Made by a program: the position numbers and the translations under genes. Under the pieces are notes generated by a model. That model made no database searches. It saw only the letters and a list, made by a program, of their open reading frames with translations, and had not been told where the DNA came from. A DNA stretch of 25,928 nt from a virus (taxonomy: Duplodnaviria > Caudoviricetes), in the IMG/VR virus record IMGVR_UViG_3300005805_000427, positions 1 through 25,928 of that record. The stretch is one strand, 5' to 3'. Positions 1 to 16,881 of this stretch are shown piece by piece; the stretch's first letter is position 1; every line of letters begins with the position of its first letter.

Positions 1-106
1 GGGCAAGGAATCTTTTTACAATTGGGCGGCGGCGCGGGTTGCAAGACCTAGCGCAAAAAAACGGAGCTAGCCCAAAACCCATTCTTCCGACTTGAAAACC
101 GAAGTC

Positions 107-568
107 ATGACGCAGGAAGCGTTGGCGAAAGCGTTGCAAACAACGACGCGCACGCTGCGCGAATGGCAAAAGCGCGAGGACTGGCCGACCGGCGCGAGCG
201 TCGAAGAATTGCTGGCATGGCGCGACGCGGCGGGACTAGGTCGCGTCAAGGACGGCTCGATCGGCGGCTTGAAAGCCGAGCTAATGCGCCGCGACATTGC
301 TTTGCGCGACCTCAAACTCCAGCGCGAGCGCGCCGAGGTAGTCGAGCGCGAGACCGTCCGCGAAATGCTGCGCCTGCTCGGCACGAAGCTTGATCTTCTC
401 CTGCGCCTCAAGCTAGAGGTGGAGCTCGGTCCGCGGGTGGCCGGCAAGTCAGCCGCGGAGGCGAACGTTGAGGGCGCGATCATTCTCGACGAAATCCGCG
501 AAGTGGTGAACGCGAACCTGGCACGCTTCGAGGCGGATGCGATCAAGACGACGGTGGCCGAAGAATAG
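107..568 (+). CDS. terS: Terminase small subunit (Nu1-like, N-terminal winged HTH)
   Basis: MTQEALAKALQTTTRTLREWQKREDWP HTH followed by a coiled coil (LKAELMRRDIALRDLKLQRERAEVVE), as in lambda Nu1-type TerS; upstream of a gpA-type TerL. ATG 107 preferred over TTG 92. Confidence 0.8.
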   Translation: MTQEALAKALQTTTRTLREWQKREDWPTGASVEELLAWRDAAGLGRVKDGSIGGLKAELMRRDIALRDLKLQRERAEVVERETVREMLRLLGTKLDLLLRLKLEVELGPRVAGKSAAEANVEGAIILDEIREVVNANLARFEADAIKTTVAEE

Positions 569-767
569 GCGTGGAAACCTGGGCGCCCGCGCGTTTGCTC
601 TGGCGCTTAGTTGGGCGCCCCTTGAGCTTCGCAAGCACTAGCCTCTGGACCCACTCAGGCGGCAACCTATCGCCCATGATCCACGAATACGCGGTGCGCT
701 CGGGGCAGCCGATACGCCGGACAATCTCCCCAGCCCCCACCCGCTTGCACTCGCTTACAAAGTCCAT
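543..767 (-). CDS. Small HTH (Cro-like) DNA-binding protein in cassette A
   Basis: GAGEIVRRIGCPERTAYSWIMGDRLPPEWVQRLVL resembles a Cro/XRE HTH; divergent from 845..1072 across two palindromes; C-terminus runs through the attC half-site and overlaps the terS 3' end. Confidence 0.6.
   Translation of the reverse strand: MDFVSECKRVGAGEIVRRIGCPERTAYSWIMGDRLPPEWVQRLVLAKLKGRPTKRQSKRAGAQVSTPILRPPSS
593..616 (-). repeat. attC-like half-site (R''/L'' arm only), left end of array
   Basis: GTTTGCTCTGGC-GCTTA-GTTGGGC matches the arm GTTGGCTCTGGC-N5-GTTAG of the three full sites; no partner arm found upstream. Confidence 0.7.
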
Positions 768-787
768 GCCGCAATCCACGCGGAACA

Positions 788-835
788 TTGCACAATGTGC
801 AAGATTGTTCTTGCGCTGCGCTGCACACTGTGCAG
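788..835. promoter_or_regulatory. Two palindromic operator-like sites, TGCACAnTGTGCA, in a divergent intergenic region
   Basis: TTGCACA-A-TGTGCAA (788-802) and CTGCACA-C-TGTGCAG (821-835), both perfect inverted repeats, between the HTH gene (-) and 845..1072 (+). Confidence 0.7.
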
Positions 836-844
836 TCTGAGCGC

Positions 845-1072
845 ATGAAATACGCCGCCCGAATCGAAGCCGAAAAGAAACTCGCTATCGCCGCCGCTGC
901 CATGAAGCGCGCTGAAATGGGAACCGACGAATCCGCCTACCTCGCCGCAGCAGCGGCATGGAAAGCCAGCATCGCGGAACTAGTGTCAGCTGAGATAGCG
1001 CACCCGACCGCTCGCGAGAGCGCCCGCCGCGCAAACATCATCCGTCTGGAAAACCGAGGGCTCGCCGCATGA
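845..1072 (+). CDS. Hypothetical Ala-rich helical protein (cassette A)
   Basis: ATG at 845 just downstream of the palindromes (ORF track opens at 788); stop overlaps next start (ATGA at 1069-1072). Confidence 0.6.
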   Translation: MKYAARIEAEKKLAIAAAAMKRAEMGTDESAYLAAAAAWKASIAELVSAEIAHPTARESARRANIIRLENRGLAA

Positions 1073-1359
1073 GCCCAGCCGAAGCCGAAAACATGGCGAA
1101 AGCCACGCGGATGCGGAACGCCGAGCTGGCGTCCGCTCTGCGGACAATCGCGAGAATCCAAGATGATGACGCGCTGGCCAAGTGGGTGCTCGGCGTTGCG
1201 GCGGAACGCCTCGAAGCCAAGAAGCGTCCCGAGGAGTCTATGTCTTTCGCGGCATACATGGCCTACAATAAAAGAATTTCGACCCAAAACGCCACGCCTG
1301 CCCCGCGGGAACTAGGTCCGCTCGATTGCAAGCGACCGGACCAGCCGGGGCAGGCGTAA
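1069..1359 (+). CDS. Hypothetical protein (cassette A)
   Basis: 96-aa ORF coupled to the previous gene by an ATGA overlap; ends 8 bp before attC1. Confidence 0.55.
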   Translation: MSPAEAENMAKATRMRNAELASALRTIARIQDDDALAKWVLGVAAERLEAKKRPEESMSFAAYMAYNKRISTQNATPAPRELGPLDCKRPDQPGQA

Positions 1360-1367
1360 CTTTATTC

Positions 1368-1486
1368 GCCCAACAAATAAGATGAGCCACGAAGACAGCG
1401 CAAATTTCCAACTGGCATCCGATGCCGGCCCAGCTTCTGAGCAACCCCTGACCGCTGTCGCCGTTGGCTCTGGCGACTTGTTAGGG
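1368..1486 (-). repeat. attC-like site 1 (119 bp)
   Basis: + strand: GCCCAAC-N6-GATGAGCCAC...GACAGCG / CGCTGTC...GTTGGCTCTGGC-N5-GTTAGGG; imperfect hairpin with conserved AAC/GTT core. Confidence 0.85.
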
Positions 1487-1762
1487 CGTTTCTTGTCGCC
1501 CGAACTCCAGCGCCAATTTCCGAAACTAAGCCGGCCCCGAAAGCCAAGGCGCTGCCGGCTCTGCTACGGTAAAATCGAAATCGGGGAGCCGTGCTGCCGG
1601 TGGGAATACCTCGAACCGGGCGAAGGCTACGGCACGTCCTACGCACACCCCGAATGCTACCAAGTCACGATCGATAGCAAGTGGGACGAAGGAGACTGGG
1701 AGTGCTGTTCCCCTGGCGACGTCACTCGCCCTAACCGACAAGATGAGCCACGCCGCAGCTGA
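1382..1762 (+). CDS. Cys/His-rich hypothetical protein, putative zinc finger (cassette B)
   Basis: CRLC...HPEC motif; starts within attC1 (encodes AVGSGDLLG) and stops within attC2 (PNRQDEPRRS). Confidence 0.7.
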   Translation: MSHEDSANFQLASDAGPASEQPLTAVAVGSGDLLGRFLSPELQRQFPKLSRPRKPRRCRLCYGKIEIGEPCCRWEYLEPGEGYGTSYAHPECYQVTIDSKWDEGDWECCSPGDVTRPNRQDEPRRS

Positions 1763-1814
1763 GATGAGCACGCAAAACCCGGCGCCGGCCGTTGGCTCTG
1801 GCGCATTGTTAGGC
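1729..1814 (-). repeat. attC-like site 2 (86 bp)
   Basis: + strand: CCCTAAC-CGACAA-GATGAGCCACGCCG...CGGCCGTTGGCTCTGGC-GCATT-GTTAGGC. Confidence 0.85.
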
Positions 1815-2075
1815 GATTTTGCGGTGAGACGTGGCTGGCGCGCATTTAAGTGTGATGATTGTGGCCACGAATGGGAATGGCCATCGCGCGACCGACACAG
1901 TACAAGCGGCGAAGACTGCCCGAAGTGCAACGCTTGGATTTTCCCTCATTCCAACAGGCCGGATGCGATGCTTCCGTGCGATTCTATGGGCAATCTCCTC
2001 ATTCCGTGGAATGCTTCGCCTAACCGAAAAGATGAGCCACGGCCTGCGCAGCAATCGACAAAGGAAACACCATGA
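1764..2075 (+). CDS. Zinc-ribbon hypothetical protein (cassette C)
   Basis: FKCDDCGHEW...CPKC; ATG 1764 lies 1 nt after the upstream stop (alternative in-frame ATG 1743); begins AVGSGALLG, ends PNRKDEPR... in attC3. Confidence 0.7.
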   Translation: MSTQNPAPAVGSGALLGDFAVRRGWRAFKCDDCGHEWEWPSRDRHSTSGEDCPKCNAWIFPHSNRPDAMLPCDSMGNLLIPWNASPNRKDEPRPAQQSTKETP

Positions 2076-2128
2076 GCAATGAGAAAAACCAATCGGCGCA
2101 GGACGTTGGCTCTGGCGCATTGTTAGCG
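2018..2128 (-). repeat. attC-like site 3 (111 bp)
   Basis: + strand: GCCTAAC-CGAAAA-GATGAGCCAC..CCTGCGC / GCGCAGG..GTTGGCTCTGGC-GCATT-GTTAGCG; the loop contains AAGGAAACACC-ATG. Confidence 0.85.
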
Positions 2129-2473
2129 ATATGTGTTAATTGCAAATACTGGCGGCGCGGCGGGAGATTTGAGCATGTATGGTCTGCAAACGCGAAGCCA
2201 GGCGGCGAACGCTTCACGGTTGGACCCATCACGCGCGCTTTTGATGAGGTGGTCGATCTGCACACTGACCCAAACGAAAAATTCGGAATATGCTTACACC
2301 CGCTCATATCTTGCTGCGGTCGAAATGGGTGGCTTGGGTGGGAGAATAGCAACGACCCTAAGGCGCTAAAAGTGGAGGCATACGACGAGCGCGGCTTCAT
2401 CTCCACGGGCGAGGAATTCGGATGCCGCCATTTTTCCGCTAACTCGAATGATGAGCCACGCCGACCTCTCTGA
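2072..2473 (+). CDS. Cys-rich hypothetical protein (cassette D)
   Basis: CVNCKYW...GIC...FGCRHF; SD-like AAGGA at 2061; ATGA overlap with upstream stop; stop abuts the terL ATG at 2474. Confidence 0.75.
   Translation: MSNEKNQSAQDVGSGALLAICVNCKYWRRGGRFEHVWSANAKPGGERFTVGPITRAFDEVVDLHTDPNEKFGICLHPLISCCGRNGWLGWENSNDPKALKVEAYDERGFISTGEEFGCRHFSANSNDEPRRPL
2437..2460 (-). repeat. attC-like half-site (L'/R' arm only), right end of array
   Basis: CGCTAAC-TCGAAT-GATGAGCCACG matches the left arm of attC1-3; no intact GTTGGCTC...GTT arm downstream (terL begins at 2474). Confidence 0.75.
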
Positions 2474-4258
2474 ATGACCTGCGCTGACGACCTTCTTGCA
2501 AGCCTGCGCCTGCCTCGCCCGGACCGTGCCGCAATATACGACTGGGCGCGACGGCATGTGCAATTGCCGGAGAGCTACGCGACGCCGGGGCCGTTCAACG
2601 TGCGGCTCTCGCCTTGGCTCGTGCCGATCTTCGATGCGCTGCAAGACCCGCTGGTCCGGCGCGTGCATTTCCGCAAGGCGGTGCAGATTGGCGGCACGCT
2701 CGTGGCCGATGTCTGGTTGCCGTGGATTATCGCGAACGATCCGGGCCCGATCTCGTGGACGATGCAGACCGACGAGATGGTTGAGAAGCATGCGAAGACC
2801 CGCTTGTGGCCGTTGCTGGAGCGATGCCGTCCGGTAGCCGCGATGCTACCTAAGCCGGGACCGCACCGGACCACGACGGAGATTTTCTTCGGCGGATTCT
2901 TCCTGACGTTGAACGCGGCGAACCTTTCGACCCAGCAGAGCCAGTCGATCCGGTACAAAATTAACGACGAGCTTTGGCTCCCGCGCTGGCAGGAGATTTA
3001 CGGGCACGCCGTCGCGCGCGTGTCCAAGTTCGAGGAAGTCGGCCGGTCGAAGATATACAACGCGTCGCAAGCTCCGGTGATGGACGCTGAAACCGGCAAC
3101 GTCGAAGACACGAGCTTCCGCAGCGGCGACCAAGGCGAGTGGCACGCGGAGTGTCCGGCCTGCCGGAAGTTGCACCCAGTTGCCTTTGAGCAGATCACGC
3201 AAGACAATCGGCGGGCGGGCCTCGTTTGGGACCGCTCCGCGAAGCGTGATGATGACACTTGGGATGTTGCGCGCGTCGTCGAGACGGTGCGTTTCCGCTG
3301 CATGCATTGCGGGCATGAGTCGCCGGACAACGATGCGACCCGCGCCGGCTGGGCGAAGACTGGCCGCTTCGTGCCGCAAAACCCGAAGGCGTCACGCGAG
3401 GTGCGCTCATTCCGCATCGAGGCGATTGTAAGCAGGCCGATGCGCTTGCTCGCGGAGGAGTGGGCGCACGCCGAGAACACACTCGTGCGAACTGGCGACG
3501 AGTCCGCGAAGATCGAGTTTCGCACGAAGCGCGAGGCGCGACCTTGGGTTGTCGAGAAGAAGGTCGTCAACCTATTCGCGGCAAAGAGCGGCTATACCGT
3601 CGCAACTTATGCGGATGGATCGCCGATAGAAAACGAACGCTTGCGCGTGATGACAATCGACCGGCAGCTCGATCACTTTTGGGTCGAGGTCGGCGCGTTT
3701 CTCGACGGTCCAATATACCGGCAACTCTGGTTCGGTCGCGTTGAGACTCGCACCATGTTGCGCGAGATTCAGAGTCGCTATCGCGTGCCGTCATTCACCG
3801 TCGTGCAGGATCGCGGATATAAGCCTGCGGAAGTTGACCGCGACTGCGTCGAGTTTGGCTGGCGCGGAATGCGCGGCTATGCGCGGAAGTCGTGGACGAT
3901 GCGCGACGAGGCCAGCGGCACGCTGCTCAACTATCCGTTCTCCGAGCCGCAGATCAGCGACTACGCGGGCGGCGATGCGCATTTCTACAACTGGTCAGGT
4001 GACTATTTCAAAGACCTTCTCGCGCTCGCACTAGAGGGAAAAGGCGAGTTGAAGTGGCAGATGCCCGACGACGTGAATCCGTTGTATATTGAGCACCTAA
4101 AGGGTGAGGTGAAAACCGAGATTCGTTCCGGCGTCTGGGAGTGGCGCGAGGTTCGCAGCAACGCGCCGAATCACGGCCTCGACACGAGCGCCATGATGCT
4201 TTGCGTCGCGACCATTGCTGGCGTCCTACGATACGTGCCCAAAACGGACGCGATGTAA
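2474..4258 (+). CDS. terL: Terminase large subunit, lambda gpA family
   Basis: Walker A-like RKAVQIGGT, Walker B RYKINDE, SGDQGEWHAECPAC and CMHC zinc motifs, nuclease acidic motifs (MTIDRQ, VQDRGY, NHGLDT). Confidence 0.95.
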   Translation: MTCADDLLASLRLPRPDRAAIYDWARRHVQLPESYATPGPFNVRLSPWLVPIFDALQDPLVRRVHFRKAVQIGGTLVADVWLPWIIANDPGPISWTMQTDEMVEKHAKTRLWPLLERCRPVAAMLPKPGPHRTTTEIFFGGFFLTLNAANLSTQQSQSIRYKINDELWLPRWQEIYGHAVARVSKFEEVGRSKIYNASQAPVMDAETGNVEDTSFRSGDQGEWHAECPACRKLHPVAFEQITQDNRRAGLVWDRSAKRDDDTWDVARVVETVRFRCMHCGHESPDNDATRAGWAKTGRFVPQNPKASREVRSFRIEAIVSRPMRLLAEEWAHAENTLVRTGDESAKIEFRTKREARPWVVEKKVVNLFAAKSGYTVATYADGSPIENERLRVMTIDRQLDHFWVEVGAFLDGPIYRQLWFGRVETRTMLREIQSRYRVPSFTVVQDRGYKPAEVDRDCVEFGWRGMRGYARKSWTMRDEASGTLLNYPFSEPQISDYAGGDAHFYNWSGDYFKDLLALALEGKGELKWQMPDDVNPLYIEHLKGEVKTEIRSGVWEWREVRSNAPNHGLDTSAMMLCVATIAGVLRYVPKTDAM

Positions 4259-4282
4259 GATTTTTACGCCATGCGCTATGGC

Positions 4283-4522
4283 ATGGCGATGGATAATCCA
4301 TTTTTGGGCATCGACGCGGCTACGCTTTCGACGCTCAAGTCTGAGACGCTGGCGGCAATTCGCGCCTGCTTGCTGAACACGAGCTATAGTCTCAACGGCA
4401 AATCGGTGACTCGCGCCGATCTTGGCAGGCTGAATATAATGCTCGGCCAGATTCAGGCCGCGATTGACGACGCCAATGGAGTCACCGATACGGTGACTTT
4501 TGTCAGTTTCAACGGGAATTGA
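4283..4522 (+). CDS. Head completion / head-tail joining protein (gpW-like)
   Basis: SYSLNGKSVTRADL motif; position between terL and portal as in lambda. Alternative starts 4271 or 4289. Confidence 0.8.
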   Translation: MAMDNPFLGIDAATLSTLKSETLAAIRACLLNTSYSLNGKSVTRADLGRLNIMLGQIQAAIDDANGVTDTVTFVSFNGN

Positions 4523-4529
4523 TACCATC

Positions 4530-6890
4530 ATGGACGCTACGTCTTTCGACTTTCAAAAGGTCATCCAGAATCGTCCTTGGTTCGAGCGTGCAATCGAAAC
4601 CGTTGCGCCTGCCTATGCGCTGAAGCGTCTTGAAGCGCGCATCCAGCGCGAGATGTTTTCGTATAACGCGGCGATGACGGATCGTTTATACGCTCCACGC
4701 CAATACGGACAGCCGAGCGAATCGACGCAGACGGTGCGCGACCGCATCGTGATGATGTGGGAGGCGCGCGACCTCGTTGAGAATTTCCCGCAAGCGCGCG
4801 AGATCACGCGCAAATTTTCGCTCTATTGTACGCCGCAGGAGTTCTCGGCGATGACTGGTGACCGCGCGTACAATAACATCGTGAATGAATACTTTCACGA
4901 CTGGTGCAAGCGCGCCGACGTGACTGGGCGGCACTCGTTCCGCAAGCTCGTGCAGATTGGGTGCGAGGAGCGTCCGGTTGACGGCGACTTCGGATTTGTC
5001 CTTCGTCGTCTCGACAAGGAACTGAAGATCCAGATCGTTCCGGCGACTCGCATCGGCAATCCGAATGCGCTCACGGCGCAGCCTGCGAACTATTATCAAG
5101 GCGTGATCGTCGATGAGTTCGGTCGTCCGGTTGCGTATCAAATCTATCGGGTGACGCGGGATGGTGTATACTTCGATCCCGAGGAAATCCCGGCGGCGAA
5201 TTTCTGTCACTTCTTCGATCCGTTCCGCAGCGATCAATTCCGAGGCGTGTCCGATTTCCACGCCTGCGCGCGGTCGGCTCGGATGCTGTATGGCATTCTT
5301 GAGGCCGAGAAGACCGGCGTGCGCTTCGCTGCGCAGCAGGCGGCACTTGTATTCTCGGACAAGGCGGCGGCGAATCCGCGCAATCTGTTTACGCCGAATC
5401 CGTCGATCCAGTTGCCGAGCGGACAGGCGCAGAAAAACGAATTGTCAGAGATCGGAATGATTCGGTATTTCGGCACCGCTGATCGCATCGAGGTCATGCC
5501 CTCGCGTCCGTCGCAGGCGTTCGCCGGTTTCGTCCAGCACTTGATGCACGAGATCGCAATCGGCATCGGCATACCGCAAGGCGTTCTGTTCGGCACGCAG
5601 GACTTTAAAGGTCCGAGCGTGCGCGCCGAGTTCGCAGCGGCGGATCGCGTGTTCGTGCGGCATCAGGGCGTGCTCGTGGACAAGGTTCTCGATCCAATCA
5701 AAAATGCGGTCATCCTCGACGCCATCGCGCGCGAGGAAATTCCGCCGCCTCCGCTACAGACTGGCGAGACGATGGTGCAAGCTATCCGTCGTGCTACGCG
5801 CGGCGAATGGCGATTTCCGCCGAAGATCACAATCGACGTCGGCCGCGAGAGCGCGGCGAACATGAACGAGAACCGGCAAGGCGCGAAGTCATTGCAGGAG
5901 ATCGCCGCCGAGCAAGGCACCGACGCTTTCGGTCGTCTTGAGCAGATCGCGATGGAGGCGGCATACGTCAAGGAGCTGGCGCAAAAGTACGAGATTCCCG
6001 AAACAGCAATTCGGCTGGTGACCAATTCGCTTCCGAGCACTCCAGCCGCTGCCGCCGCTGCTGGCGACCAGGTCGCAACGTCTGCCGCGCAAGCGCAGCA
6101 AGCCGCATCTCCCGGTCAGTCTGCCTCCACCGAGAACATCGCCGAAGGCGCAACGCCCGACGCTCCGGTCGAACAGGTCAACGCCTCGGCCGATCTGATC
6201 ACGGTCAACTTCGCGGAGGATTCATACGTGCCGAATGATCGCATGGCCGCGAACGCTCGCCGCGCGCTTGAAGTTCGCGCCAGTAAACCGCCATCTCAGC
6301 GCGGCATGACTTCGGTCGGCCTGGCTCGCGCTCGTGATATTCAAAACAAGAAGCCGCTCTCAGCCGATACCGTTCGCCGGATGAAGGCATACTTCGACCG
6401 GCACGAGATCGATAAGCAAGGTTCGACGTGGGACGAGCAAGGCAAAGGATGGCAGGCATGGAACGGATGGGGCGGCGACGCCGGAAGAACGTGGGCGAAC
6501 GCAATCGTCGAGCGGCTCAACAAAGCCGAGCGCAAGGAAGCCGCGTCAACCGAGCAGCAGCGCAGACTTGAATCCGCCGACGTTGTTGCGATCACGCTCG
6601 AACAGCGGCCAGCCGATCCGCACGCATGGCTCAATGCCGTCGAGCAATACCGCAAGGAGCTTTCGGTCAAGGCAGCGACCGCGACCAATCCGATTCTCGA
6701 CAAGCCGCTCGTGCAATTCGCCGAGCCGAAGAAGTTTGATCTGCCGACGCCAGTCGCAGGCGAGACGCACGATGACTTCATGGCTCGCTGCATGGCCGAT
6801 CCAGTAGCAACCGCAGAGTTTCCAGACGCCGCGCAACGGAGCGCGGTCTGTATGAAACAGCACGAGGGAAAACTTCAGAAAAAGAACTGA
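4530..6890 (+). CDS. Portal protein, lambda family, with long C-terminal extension
   Basis: APAYALKRLEAR, ARDLVENFP, GVIVDEFGRPVAYQI, RSDQFRGVS motifs; core about 500 aa followed by an Ala-rich linker and extra domains. Confidence 0.92.
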   Translation: MDATSFDFQKVIQNRPWFERAIETVAPAYALKRLEARIQREMFSYNAAMTDRLYAPRQYGQPSESTQTVRDRIVMMWEARDLVENFPQAREITRKFSLYCTPQEFSAMTGDRAYNNIVNEYFHDWCKRADVTGRHSFRKLVQIGCEERPVDGDFGFVLRRLDKELKIQIVPATRIGNPNALTAQPANYYQGVIVDEFGRPVAYQIYRVTRDGVYFDPEEIPAANFCHFFDPFRSDQFRGVSDFHACARSARMLYGILEAEKTGVRFAAQQAALVFSDKAAANPRNLFTPNPSIQLPSGQAQKNELSEIGMIRYFGTADRIEVMPSRPSQAFAGFVQHLMHEIAIGIGIPQGVLFGTQDFKGPSVRAEFAAADRVFVRHQGVLVDKVLDPIKNAVILDAIAREEIPPPPLQTGETMVQAIRRATRGEWRFPPKITIDVGRESAANMNENRQGAKSLQEIAAEQGTDAFGRLEQIAMEAAYVKELAQKYEIPETAIRLVTNSLPSTPAAAAAAGDQVATSAAQAQQAASPGQSASTENIAEGATPDAPVEQVNASADLITVNFAEDSYVPNDRMAANARRALEVRASKPPSQRGMTSVGLARARDIQNKKPLSADTVRRMKAYFDRHEIDKQGSTWDEQGKGWQAWNGWGGDAGRTWANAIVERLNKAERKEAASTEQQRRLESADVVAITLEQRPADPHAWLNAVEQYRKELSVKAATATNPILDKPLVQFAEPKKFDLPTPVAGETHDDFMARCMADPVATAEFPDAAQRSAVCMKQHEGKLQKKN

Positions 6891-14545: not shown

Positions 14546-16246
14546 ATGCGCTTTTCGCTTTGCGTGATATGCGGCAACGAGTCGCACCACATAGGCCAGA
14601 TGCTCGCAGCATTTGCTCCTGCGTTTGACGAGCTTTCGCTCGTGCGCGCAATCGGCAAGCGTGTGCCTGATGGAACAAAGGAGATTGCCGAGGAGTGGTG
14701 CCGATCAAACGGCAAGGCGTTTGTTTTCTCCGAGTATATTAACGAGCCGACCGCACGCGATTGGGATCACGTCGATTCATTTGCTCGCGCTCGCAATGGC
14801 GCCTTTAAGCAGGCCAAAGGCGAATGGCTTTTCTGGGCCGACTGCGACGACGTGGTGCGCGGTGCCGAGAATCTACGCCGCACGCTGGAGCAAGTTCCGG
14901 CAGACGTGCAAATGGTGCGCTTTTCGTATGACGTCAAAGGGTCGAACAAATGCTTGTTCCGCGAGCGAGCGATTCGCCGAGACGCTTTCCACTCCGGTCG
15001 AGTCTGGCATCACGATGTACACGAGAACCTGCTGATTCTCGCTGGCGACAAGCATCTCGATCTCGGCGACGTTGTCTGGGTTCACGCACCAAAAGAAATC
15101 AAGCAGGAGAACCGAAGGCGCAATCTCCGCATCCTCGCAAACTCGGTTCGCGAATGCGCGACGCAGTATTTCTACATTCATCAGGAGCACTACTGTAACC
15201 AGAACCGCGAGGCCGCGCTGGAGTTTGGTCGCCTCGCGTTGCAGTTTCCGAATCTTCAACCGGCTTTCCGATACGAGGCGTTGCTGAATTGCGCTCGTCT
15301 GACTAATTCCAGCCGCGAAGCGAAGTCTCTTTTGCTCGAAGCGCATGGCGTTTTCCCGTGGTGCCGAGAGGCATTCGCCGGTCTTGTGCTGCACGCCTTC
15401 GAGCAGAAGGACTATTCAATGGCGGTCTATTGGGCGCAGCGCATGACGGAATTGCGCGAGCCATTGAGCGACAAGCGACCGTGGACGCACGAGGCGAAGT
15501 GGTACGGCTGGGCCGGATACGATCTTGCCGCTCGCGCATTCCGAGCCGAAGGAAACAAGGCGATGGCGGCGGTTCTTCAGGCTCAATACTATCTCGGCAA
15601 GACTCCGAAGATTTCGCTCCTGCACGCAACGCGAGGTCGATCTTCAATGGCGGTTTCAACGCGGGATATGTGGCTCAATGCGGCCAGCGATCCGACGCGC
15701 GTTGAGCATATCTTCGCGGTCGATGAGGACGATGCCGTCAGCGTCGAGATGGCGAAGCAGTTCATCTCCGTCACTTCGTCGGACAAATCGTGCGTCGCTG
15801 CGTGGAATCTCGCTGCGGAATCTGCGCGCGGAGAAATCCTCGTACAACTCTCGGACGATTGGGTGCCATGCGCCGGATGGGACGAGAAGCTGCTAGATCT
15901 CGTGAAGGATCGCGACGCTCACTCCGAGCCATTCGTGATCGCGCCGAGCGATGGAAGCCGAAAGGACGACTTGCTCTGCATGGCGATCTTGTCGCGTGCG
16001 CGCTACGAGCAGCAAGGGCATCTGTTCTTTCCTGAGTATGAGTCTGTATTCAGCGACAACGAATTCTCTCACCGAGCATGGCGCGACGGCATCGTGATCG
16101 ACGCGAGAGATCGCCTGCGCTTCGATCACCGGCATCCGGCTTTCGGCAAGGCGAACATGGACAAGACATATTCGCATACGAATTCCCGCGAGCGATACGT
16201 GCGCGGCGAGGCACTATTCAAGTCACGCAACCCAGACGCGAAATGA
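14546..16246 (+). CDS. Double glycosyltransferase: GT2-like, TPR, second GT-A domain
   Basis: SLCVICGNE, FARARN, WLFWADCDD, VHENL (GT2); helical TPR-like middle; ISLLHATRGR, AVDEDD, VAAWN, LVQLSDD (second GT-A). Confidence 0.88.
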   Translation: MRFSLCVICGNESHHIGQMLAAFAPAFDELSLVRAIGKRVPDGTKEIAEEWCRSNGKAFVFSEYINEPTARDWDHVDSFARARNGAFKQAKGEWLFWADCDDVVRGAENLRRTLEQVPADVQMVRFSYDVKGSNKCLFRERAIRRDAFHSGRVWHHDVHENLLILAGDKHLDLGDVVWVHAPKEIKQENRRRNLRILANSVRECATQYFYIHQEHYCNQNREAALEFGRLALQFPNLQPAFRYEALLNCARLTNSSREAKSLLLEAHGVFPWCREAFAGLVLHAFEQKDYSMAVYWAQRMTELREPLSDKRPWTHEAKWYGWAGYDLAARAFRAEGNKAMAAVLQAQYYLGKTPKISLLHATRGRSSMAVSTRDMWLNAASDPTRVEHIFAVDEDDAVSVEMAKQFISVTSSDKSCVAAWNLAAESARGEILVQLSDDWVPCAGWDEKLLDLVKDRDAHSEPFVIAPSDGSRKDDLLCMAILSRARYEQQGHLFFPEYESVFSDNEFSHRAWRDGIVIDARDRLRFDHRHPAFGKANMDKTYSHTNSRERYVRGEALFKSRNPDAK

Positions 16247-16881
16247 ACGTTCCCGAGCATTATCAAATCGACGCGAAGATAGGCGCGCTTCGGTCGAGGG
16301 ATCGTCGCGTGACTGCGGTTTACGATCACGCCTACGTAGCACGATATGAGAACTATCCACAGCGTGAATTGTCGGCGATCAGAGCGAAGCTGGTGCATCG
16401 CTTTTCCGAATTTGCGATCAATGTTTGCGACGTAGGCTGCGGCACAGGTGCTTTCCTCGAAGAGATGAAACGCACGCAGCCGGGAATCGTTTGCTGCGGT
16501 CACGATGTTTCGCCTTACCCGCTTCCGTCTTTTATCAATCGAGTCGGCGCAGACTGGCACGAGTTGCAATGGGACACGGTAACGTTCTTTGATAGTCTTG
16601 AGCACTTCGATTCGCTCGACTTCGTTGAGCATCTGCGCGCTCGTGCGGTGATCGTATCGCTGCCGTGGTATCATCCGTACATGGGATCGGAATGGTTCGC
16701 TCGATGGAAACATCGCAGGCCGGGAGAACATCTCTGGCACTTCACGCCGGTAAGCCTGACGAGACTATTCGCGCAGGCTGGATTCCGTCCGGTCTATGTC
16801 GGCAATCCCGAAGATGAAGTGCGAAAGCCGGATTCGGATTCCTGCGCTCCAAACATTCTGACGATGGCATTTCGCCGATGA
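16243..16881 (+). CDS. Class I SAM-dependent methyltransferase
   Basis: VCDVGCGTGAFL, FFDSLEH, EHLWHFTPVSL; ATG 16243 overlaps upstream stop. Confidence 0.88.
   Translation: MNVPEHYQIDAKIGALRSRDRRVTAVYDHAYVARYENYPQRELSAIRAKLVHRFSEFAINVCDVGCGTGAFLEEMKRTQPGIVCCGHDVSPYPLPSFINRVGADWHELQWDTVTFFDSLEHFDSLDFVEHLRARAVIVSLPWYHPYMGSEWFARWKHRRPGEHLWHFTPVSLTRLFAQAGFRPVYVGNPEDEVRKPDSDSCAPNILTMAFRR

Follow-up and report, generated by a model that had tools for sequence, protein, structure and literature searches.

The window (the whole stretch of DNA analysed here, 25,928 nucleotides) is a single viral contig, IMGVR_UViG_3300005805_000427, which is about 70% complete and whose + strand encodes a lambda-like head/tail operon according to profile searches. 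Between the genes for the two terminase subunits lies an array of integron-type sites and gene cassettes, laid out as follows.

92..568, + strand: likely terS, small terminase subunit (phrog_57, E 0.002, residues 1-140)
593..616, - strand: upstream half site with R'' and L'' only, its L'/R' arm missing (weak model match, 11.7 bits)
610..1374, + strand: cassette 1 body, ends complementary over 8 bp
845-1072 and 1069-1359, + strand: open reading frames of cassette 1 (75 and 96 aa), no family match at E<0.01
1368..1486, - strand: attC1, full site, 119 nt (51.8 bits with a host-trained model)
1382..1762, + strand: cassette 2 gene, 126 aa, Cys-rich, phage-type, with homologues in four viral loci
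1480-1735: cassette 2 body, ends complementary over 9 bp (classical cassette unit 1374-1734)
1729..1814, - strand: attC2, full site, 86 nt (45.1 bits), containing the gene 2 stop and the gene 3 start (1743 or 1764)
1743..2075, + strand: cassette 3 gene, 110 aa, zinc-ribbon-like (PF09723, E 1.7e-4, below the Pfam cut-off)
1808-2024: cassette 3 body, ends complementary over 9 bp (classical unit 1735-2023)
2018..2128, - strand: attC3, full site, 111 nt (49.3 bits), containing the gene 3 stop, an AAGGA motif and the gene 4 start at 2072
2072..2473, + strand: cassette 4 gene, 133 aa, its stop abutting the terL start
2122-2443: cassette 4 body, ends complementary over 7 bp (classical unit 2024-2442)
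2437..2460, - strand: downstream half site with L' and R' only, running into sequence that resembles the 5' end of terL in relatives
2474..4258, + strand: terL, lambda gpA-type large terminase (PF05876, E 9.3e-27; phrog_15, E 8.7e-47)

Judged from these matches, the identity of terL is firm and that of terS only likely. The PHROG match of terS is weak, and Pfam and PDB searches with 92-568 returned no match; its assignment also draws on position, as it abuts terL directly in many relatives (see below). The array itself is covered by overlapping contigs from four runs of one study with no internal joint or difference, which speaks against mis-assembly, the runs possibly including the source sample. 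An Rfam search of 1-5000 and a search of GenBank phages with 550-2500 gave no match. Likewise, a promoter/terminator scan found nothing above chance, and no + strand sigma-70-like promoter passed. Further along the contig, the portal gene (within 4500-6890) has a long C-terminal extension matching phrog_2859, and the structural operon also includes glycosyltransferase and methyltransferase genes (14546-16881).

The sites are built from two recurring motifs. AAC-N6-GATGAGCCAC occurs in four mismatch-free copies (at 1372, 1733, 2022 and 2441) and GTTGGCTCTGGC-N5-GTT also in four (1463, 1791 and 2105 exact, 593 with one mismatch); four matches of either motif were reached in 0 of 100 shuffles. 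They combine into three full elements, 119, 86 and 111 nt long, with a half element on either side, all between terS and terL; an earlier note on this DNA had described the same set. In attC sites, spacers of 5 and 6 nt lie next to R'' and R'. On the minus strand, the full elements run R'', 5 nt, L'', loop, L', 6 nt, R', with the top strand on the minus strand. The minus-strand reading that the note had drawn from this 5/6 asymmetry holds in all three. Their cores fit RYYYAAC/GTTRRRY, with up to two letters off the RYYY/RRRY consensus, and the upstream half site begins 24 nt past the terS stop. The covariance-model check proposed for the 550-2500 region was also passed: a model from 33 host sites gives the three full elements 45-52 bits on the minus strand and all others at most 12 bits, scores that are partly circular, as the training sites were chosen by the window's motif, and that measure likeness to host sites rather than independence.

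Folding gives more modest support. The hairpins proposed for the + strand are present, with z from -0.26 to -2.68 over six folds (-1.5 to -2.7 for the + strand). As expected of attC, the bottom strand folds into a hairpin with the central spacer unpaired. For attC3, the minimum-energy fold of the + strand leaves the R boxes unpaired and the centroid pairs them; in excised-circle sites as modelled, the R boxes are fully paired and 2-4 kcal/mol are gained. The unpaired T of GTTGGC that the note had pointed to is found in the + strand folds of all three full sites. The first extrahelical base of attC is usually a conserved G, as stated in the part of PMC5371416 that deals with it. Here the first extrahelical position of the bottom strand is a T, as in the host sites, and in the fold it runs together with the central loop.

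A cassette is also defined by its ends. That is, the R' and R'' bounds of a unit should be mutually complementary, and in all four units they are: each body's GTT end pairs with its own AAC end over 8, 9, 9 and 7 bp (bodies 1-4), as against 3-6 bp in the 12 other end pairings, which include the R boxes within each in-array site. The cassette array proposed earlier can thus be delimited unit by unit. The pattern extends to other viral bodies, where pairing of own ends over at least 7 bp was found in 21 of 32 (host-like arrays L084 and L095 dropped beforehand), compared to 56 of 992 cross pairs. Among host bodies, the ends are complementary over at least 7 bp in 117 of 136. Moreover, the complementarity is retained when the letters change. 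For example, the cassette 3 body recurs in L294 (70% nt) with different ends, again complementary over 9 bp, and the gene 2 homologues of L326 and L327, which lie next to other site families, show end pairing over 9 and 8 bp. In L326 (2430-2778), the body of the gene 2 homologue ends in GTA...TAC rather than GTT...AAC and is still complementary over 9 bp, both triplets having changed together. Mutually complementary ends are the mark of real cassettes, and they are expected if each unit was once an excised circle with its two ends paired.

The earlier note overlooked the orientation of the genes, which run antisense to the sites and are built into them. All cassette genes lie on the attC bottom strand, and the canonical layout (a top-strand gene followed by its site) is not what we find. 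The starts of genes 2-4 lie 98, 65 and 50 nt deep in the preceding site, and their stops 27, 51 and 30 nt into the next one; in the case of gene 2, the bottom strand of attC1 supplies the first 33 codons. In genes 2-4, GTT falls at codon position 3 and AAC at position 1, giving one frame at both cores. Gene stops and following starts overlap or abut all the way to terL, whose start is also overlapped by an 8-codon frame (2451-2477). In host arrays, by comparison, genes occupy the top strand and stop immediately ahead of R''. A codon score favours the bottom strand in 20 of 27 viral bodies (7 dissent); of 117 genome bodies, 93 score better on the top strand (24 dissent). These counts leave out bodies with less than 7 bp of complement (11/38 viral, 19/136 genome). 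The score is crude and cassettes of one array are counted as independent, for which reason the Fisher p of 2e-7 overstates independence.

We found no description of inverted, site-embedded phage cassettes in a search of the open-access literature. Standard surveys would tend to drop such a layout; one metagenome survey, for instance, retained only genes whose overlap with a site did not exceed 50 nt, and its gene assignment was to the top strand (PMC7370490). As for function, attC excision is reported to rise when the bottom strand is on the lagging-strand template (PMC5371416). If the cassette genes were co-oriented with replication, the inverted polarity would place the bottom strand there, which we offer only as an idea.

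By homology, the cassette cargo is phage-type. The nearest Atlas clusters are 69-100% viral for the cassette 2 protein and 82-90% viral for the cassette 4 protein, for which a homologue search returned only itself. The cassette 3 protein has a 68% aa homologue in the phage contig L294, behind a different attC. An alignment-based scan of viral contigs found four homologues of gene 2, and in a scan of viral contigs with single proteins of three cassette bodies the matches were short and unconvincing. In thirteen versions of protein 2 (12 homologues and the window's), the stretch between the GTT and AAC codons is conserved. The tails differ in nearly all of them; the leaders form several classes, with four close members sharing theirs. 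Other arrays carry genes that, by their motifs, look methyltransferase-like and PAPS-reductase-like. Cassette 1 is less well defined in content, as about 230 nt with no convincing gene precede its reading frames. Two short inverted repeats (788-840) upstream of the frame at 845 may be an operator or promoter, to which the promoter scan gave no score. In addition, a contig of run X9 joins the end of terS, 30 other letters and window 1021-1074, which suggests that the interior of cassette 1 is mosaic with resident modules.

The terS-terL interval varies in relatives too. We surveyed the best 80 of 138 terL relatives, with both genes visible in 69 of them: terS abuts terL in 41/69, and inserts of 304-4309 nt are present in 28/69. 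The two closest relatives listed (96-97% terL) have unrelated modules in the interval, and attC sites of the array type were absent from 80/80 of these loci (best 80 of 138) and from three near-complete genomes. From these comparisons, the interval is an older hotspot and the array one filling of it. The earlier note's view of a swappable accessory locus therefore stands for the interval and fails for the array as its cause (0/80 loci with sites); we rejected the array as the device that makes the locus variable, as relatives vary without sites. The modules in seven intervals (L001, L004, L007, L008, L009, L078 and L080) share, in various combinations, a promoter-like block, a hairpin block and a short open reading frame just ahead of terL. 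These modules form a second, attC-free swapping system.

Related arrays do occur at or near this position. In L280 (terL 70%), a cassette lies between terS and terL with its downstream site cut, and in L337/G007 (terL 55%, 100% complete) an array lies between terL and the head-tail adaptor. The array in L090 and L337 (9232-11988), lying between terL and the head-tail adaptor, is longer and also inverted, and one of its leaders matches that of protein P0003 but stands in front of a different body. In the window, the first letters past the terS stop agree with the beginning of the L004 module; the downstream half site continues into letters like the terL start of relatives. Both outer junctions of the block lie off the AAC/GTT core, which means that a clean IntI crossover does not account for the entry, or the persistence, of the block as a whole. 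It probably arrived, or was trimmed, by micro-homology recombination that cut the outer sites.

Inside arrays, the picture is different for two contig pairs (L294/L317 and L313/L196). In each pair, the site is 95% alike and the downstream gene 82-85%, and upstream of AA|C the identity is 58-60%, that is, background. A shared site and gene with differing DNA upstream of AA|C is, on these alignments, the signature of a classical crossover. An attC site is recombined by IntI at G|TT, preferentially on its bottom strand. The earlier expectation of breakpoints at the AAC/GTT core is thus borne out at AA|C in these pairs and contradicted by the window's two outer junctions. A single contig of run X7 (depth 2.7, 13 loose letters) weakly adds a case, tracking the window to 1376 before diverging. 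Two joints in run X9 (1485-1790 and 1814-2015) were considered as excisions and rejected, as they rest on 24-25 arm letters with unknown sequence between. No skipped cassette was seen in the four runs of one study. Nor was there a close relative differing by one cassette, with 0/80 loci having sites (best 80 of 138) and 0/3 near-complete relatives.

Sites and genes are also shuffled against each other. The attC1 family precedes three unrelated genes, with 80-92% identity between groups, and attC1 itself is 80-84% identical to sites preceding other genes in L294, L317, L313 and L196. Conversely, bodies 2 and 3 are also found behind unrelated sites. A classical single crossover would not explain these pairings, which could reflect cassette genesis, crossover at R'' or recombination at the arms.

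Where would the recombinase come from? No PF00589 or tyrosine recombinase match was found in the contig (about 70% complete). The same holds for PF00589 in 5/5 terL relatives (three of them 97-99% complete) and in 5/5 viral records with arrays, of which three are 94-100% complete. Five further viral records gave one tyrosine recombinase above the cut-off, resembling a prophage integrase, and one weak match. The earlier proposal of a recombinase acting in trans is accordingly the most likely one, and a host IntI is its simplest source. A genome-contig scan with the right-arm motif found at least 149 loci, and among the matches listed the multi-match loci are mostly labelled Verrucomicrobiota/Opitutaceae; a Paceibacterota bin and a Gemmatimonadota bin are also among them. 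The Horticoccus array of the same arms has, 1.1 kb ahead of its first site, a divergently oriented intI that scores above the TIGR02249 cut-off (371 bits). IntI is above the cut-off in 2 of 5 genomes tested there and in 48 of 101 genomes of the Horticoccus family.

The phage's host is inferred from the site family only. In a prophage-based search of 301 Horticoccus-family genomes, the best terL match was 34% identical. A metagenome pattern scan found real sites at 2 of 15 loci, the remainder being chance matches inside genes, and the terL junction at 0 of 15. Two viral records, L084 and L095, have host-like arrays of canonical polarity at their contig ends and may be host DNA. L196, a contig in a Sulfuritalea-labelled bin, has an attC1-family site with a methyltransferase-like gene, inverted and with one spacer a letter short; it is probably a phage contig within that bin.

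Altogether, we give a probability of roughly 0.68 to the following reading: a four-cassette, Opitutaceae-type attC array with inverted phage-type genes, likely assembled and exchanged among phages by host IntI, and likely brought into the hotspot by micro-homology. Each unit would pass through an excised circle, whose bottom-strand hairpin would pair the unit's own two ends and be cut at AA|C. The site would precede the gene and give its start, and the neighbour's site would give the stop. With the start from a unit's own site and the stop from its neighbour's, any cassette order would yield a coupled operon. IntI would come from the infected cell, and the outer sites would have been cut in their loops, on or after arrival. 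In this way, the phage would likely borrow a bacterial integrase to reshuffle its own accessory genes.

Some of the same evidence can be read otherwise. The sites may be integron-derived but inert by now, persisting as linkers and translation-start sequence, with homologous recombination at the 10-13 nt arms or at whole sites swapping the genes. Such a view would account for the two cut outer sites with junctions resembling micro-homologies, the mosaic, attC-free interval in 28/69 relatives (best 80 of 138) and the new combinations of leaders and bodies, as well as for L325, where a gene 2 homologue is part of an ordinary operon and only a decayed arm follows it. Arm recombination, however, requires no end pairing, yet 4/4 units are complementary and remain so when the sequence changes. 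In addition, the breakpoints of the two contig pairs fall at AA|C, which is 6-7 nt beyond the conserved arm. On balance, we consider inert sites unlikely. Bolder, and to us a doubtful though less improbable proposal, is that phages run a mirror-image branch of integrons and make cassettes themselves. Host-type hairpins would be fused in frame to phage genes as a portable start, the neighbour's hairpin would provide the stop, and crossovers at both R boxes would shuffle starts and bodies independently. If this were true, phage genomes would be a place to watch cassette genesis, which is an open question.

The source of recombinase and cargo leaves room for two further alternatives. About 30% of the genome is missing and could hold the phage's own IntI or a short tyrosine recombinase, making the array a phage integron. 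This seems very unlikely to us, as a PF00589 search had no match in three relatives of 97-99% completeness or in the 100%-complete, array-bearing G007, and no attI-like start of the array was seen. Least probable, to the point of being hardly credible, is a stretch of host integron captured whole, with the real genes on the minus strand or the + frames due to chance. Minus-strand frames do span 82-100% of bodies 2-4, and the viral records L084 and L095 do carry host-like canonical arrays. Against capture, homologues of the + strand proteins that share conserved Cys motifs occur in other phages, the + strand wins the codon-use score in 4/4 bodies, and blastn of the bodies against the genome loci gave no match except the phage-like stretch in L196.

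The significance of the locus is that integron-type cassettes here carry phage rather than host genes. If shuffling by a host integrase is real, phages would be drawing on an adaptation system of their hosts when they swap accessory genes, the packaging operon included. With one site family before three unrelated genes, one gene behind several site families, and ends that co-vary, these cassettes are also substrates for testing how cassettes are made.

With two or more attC sites inside a few kb, no integrase nearby and no intI in the contig (about 70% complete), the terS-terL block is a real CALIN, with inverted, site-embedded phage cassettes of Opitutaceae type, and a variant of a known phenomenon. 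Phage CALINs, defined by at least two attC sites and no integrase, have been described as 17 clusters in 10,705 phages, and five of six phage attC sites assayed recombined with IntI1 (Qi et al. 2023, PMC9892861). The window resembles them in its multiple attC sites and missing integrase. It differs in having genes antisense to the sites and start codons within them, neither of which appears in the main text of that study (PMC9892861), and in its position, as the clusters are not described there as lying within a packaging operon. The report does mention divergent sites for P12002L. In phage TJE1, the one site checked, the assayed attC1 follows orf1 on the same strand, which is canonical and unlike the window (PMC9892861).

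The attG work offers another route, in which cassettes insert into attI-less DNA and folded sites can later be deleted (bioRxiv 10.1101/2022.09.11.507474). Such insertion predicts a complete site at the entry junction, whereas both outer sites of the window are cut; inverted phage genes are not treated in the portion of that work concerned with attG. Closer in anatomy are the sedentary chromosomal integrons of Opitutaceae (Horticoccus sp. 23ND18S-11, L257), with which the window shares the L''/L' arms, the 5/6 spacers and complementary ends. Those arrays have intI, an attI-like start, top-strand genes and near-uniform non-coding loops. The window has no intI, bottom-strand genes and loops that encode protein starts, and the top-strand start of its array is a cut attC. 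Accessory-gene hotspots of phages are known for moron-like modules. Like them, the window places variable small genes between conserved core genes, as do the modules in 28/69 relatives (best 80 of 138); the modules of these relatives lack attC (0/80 loci, best 80 of 138), whereas the window's array has it.
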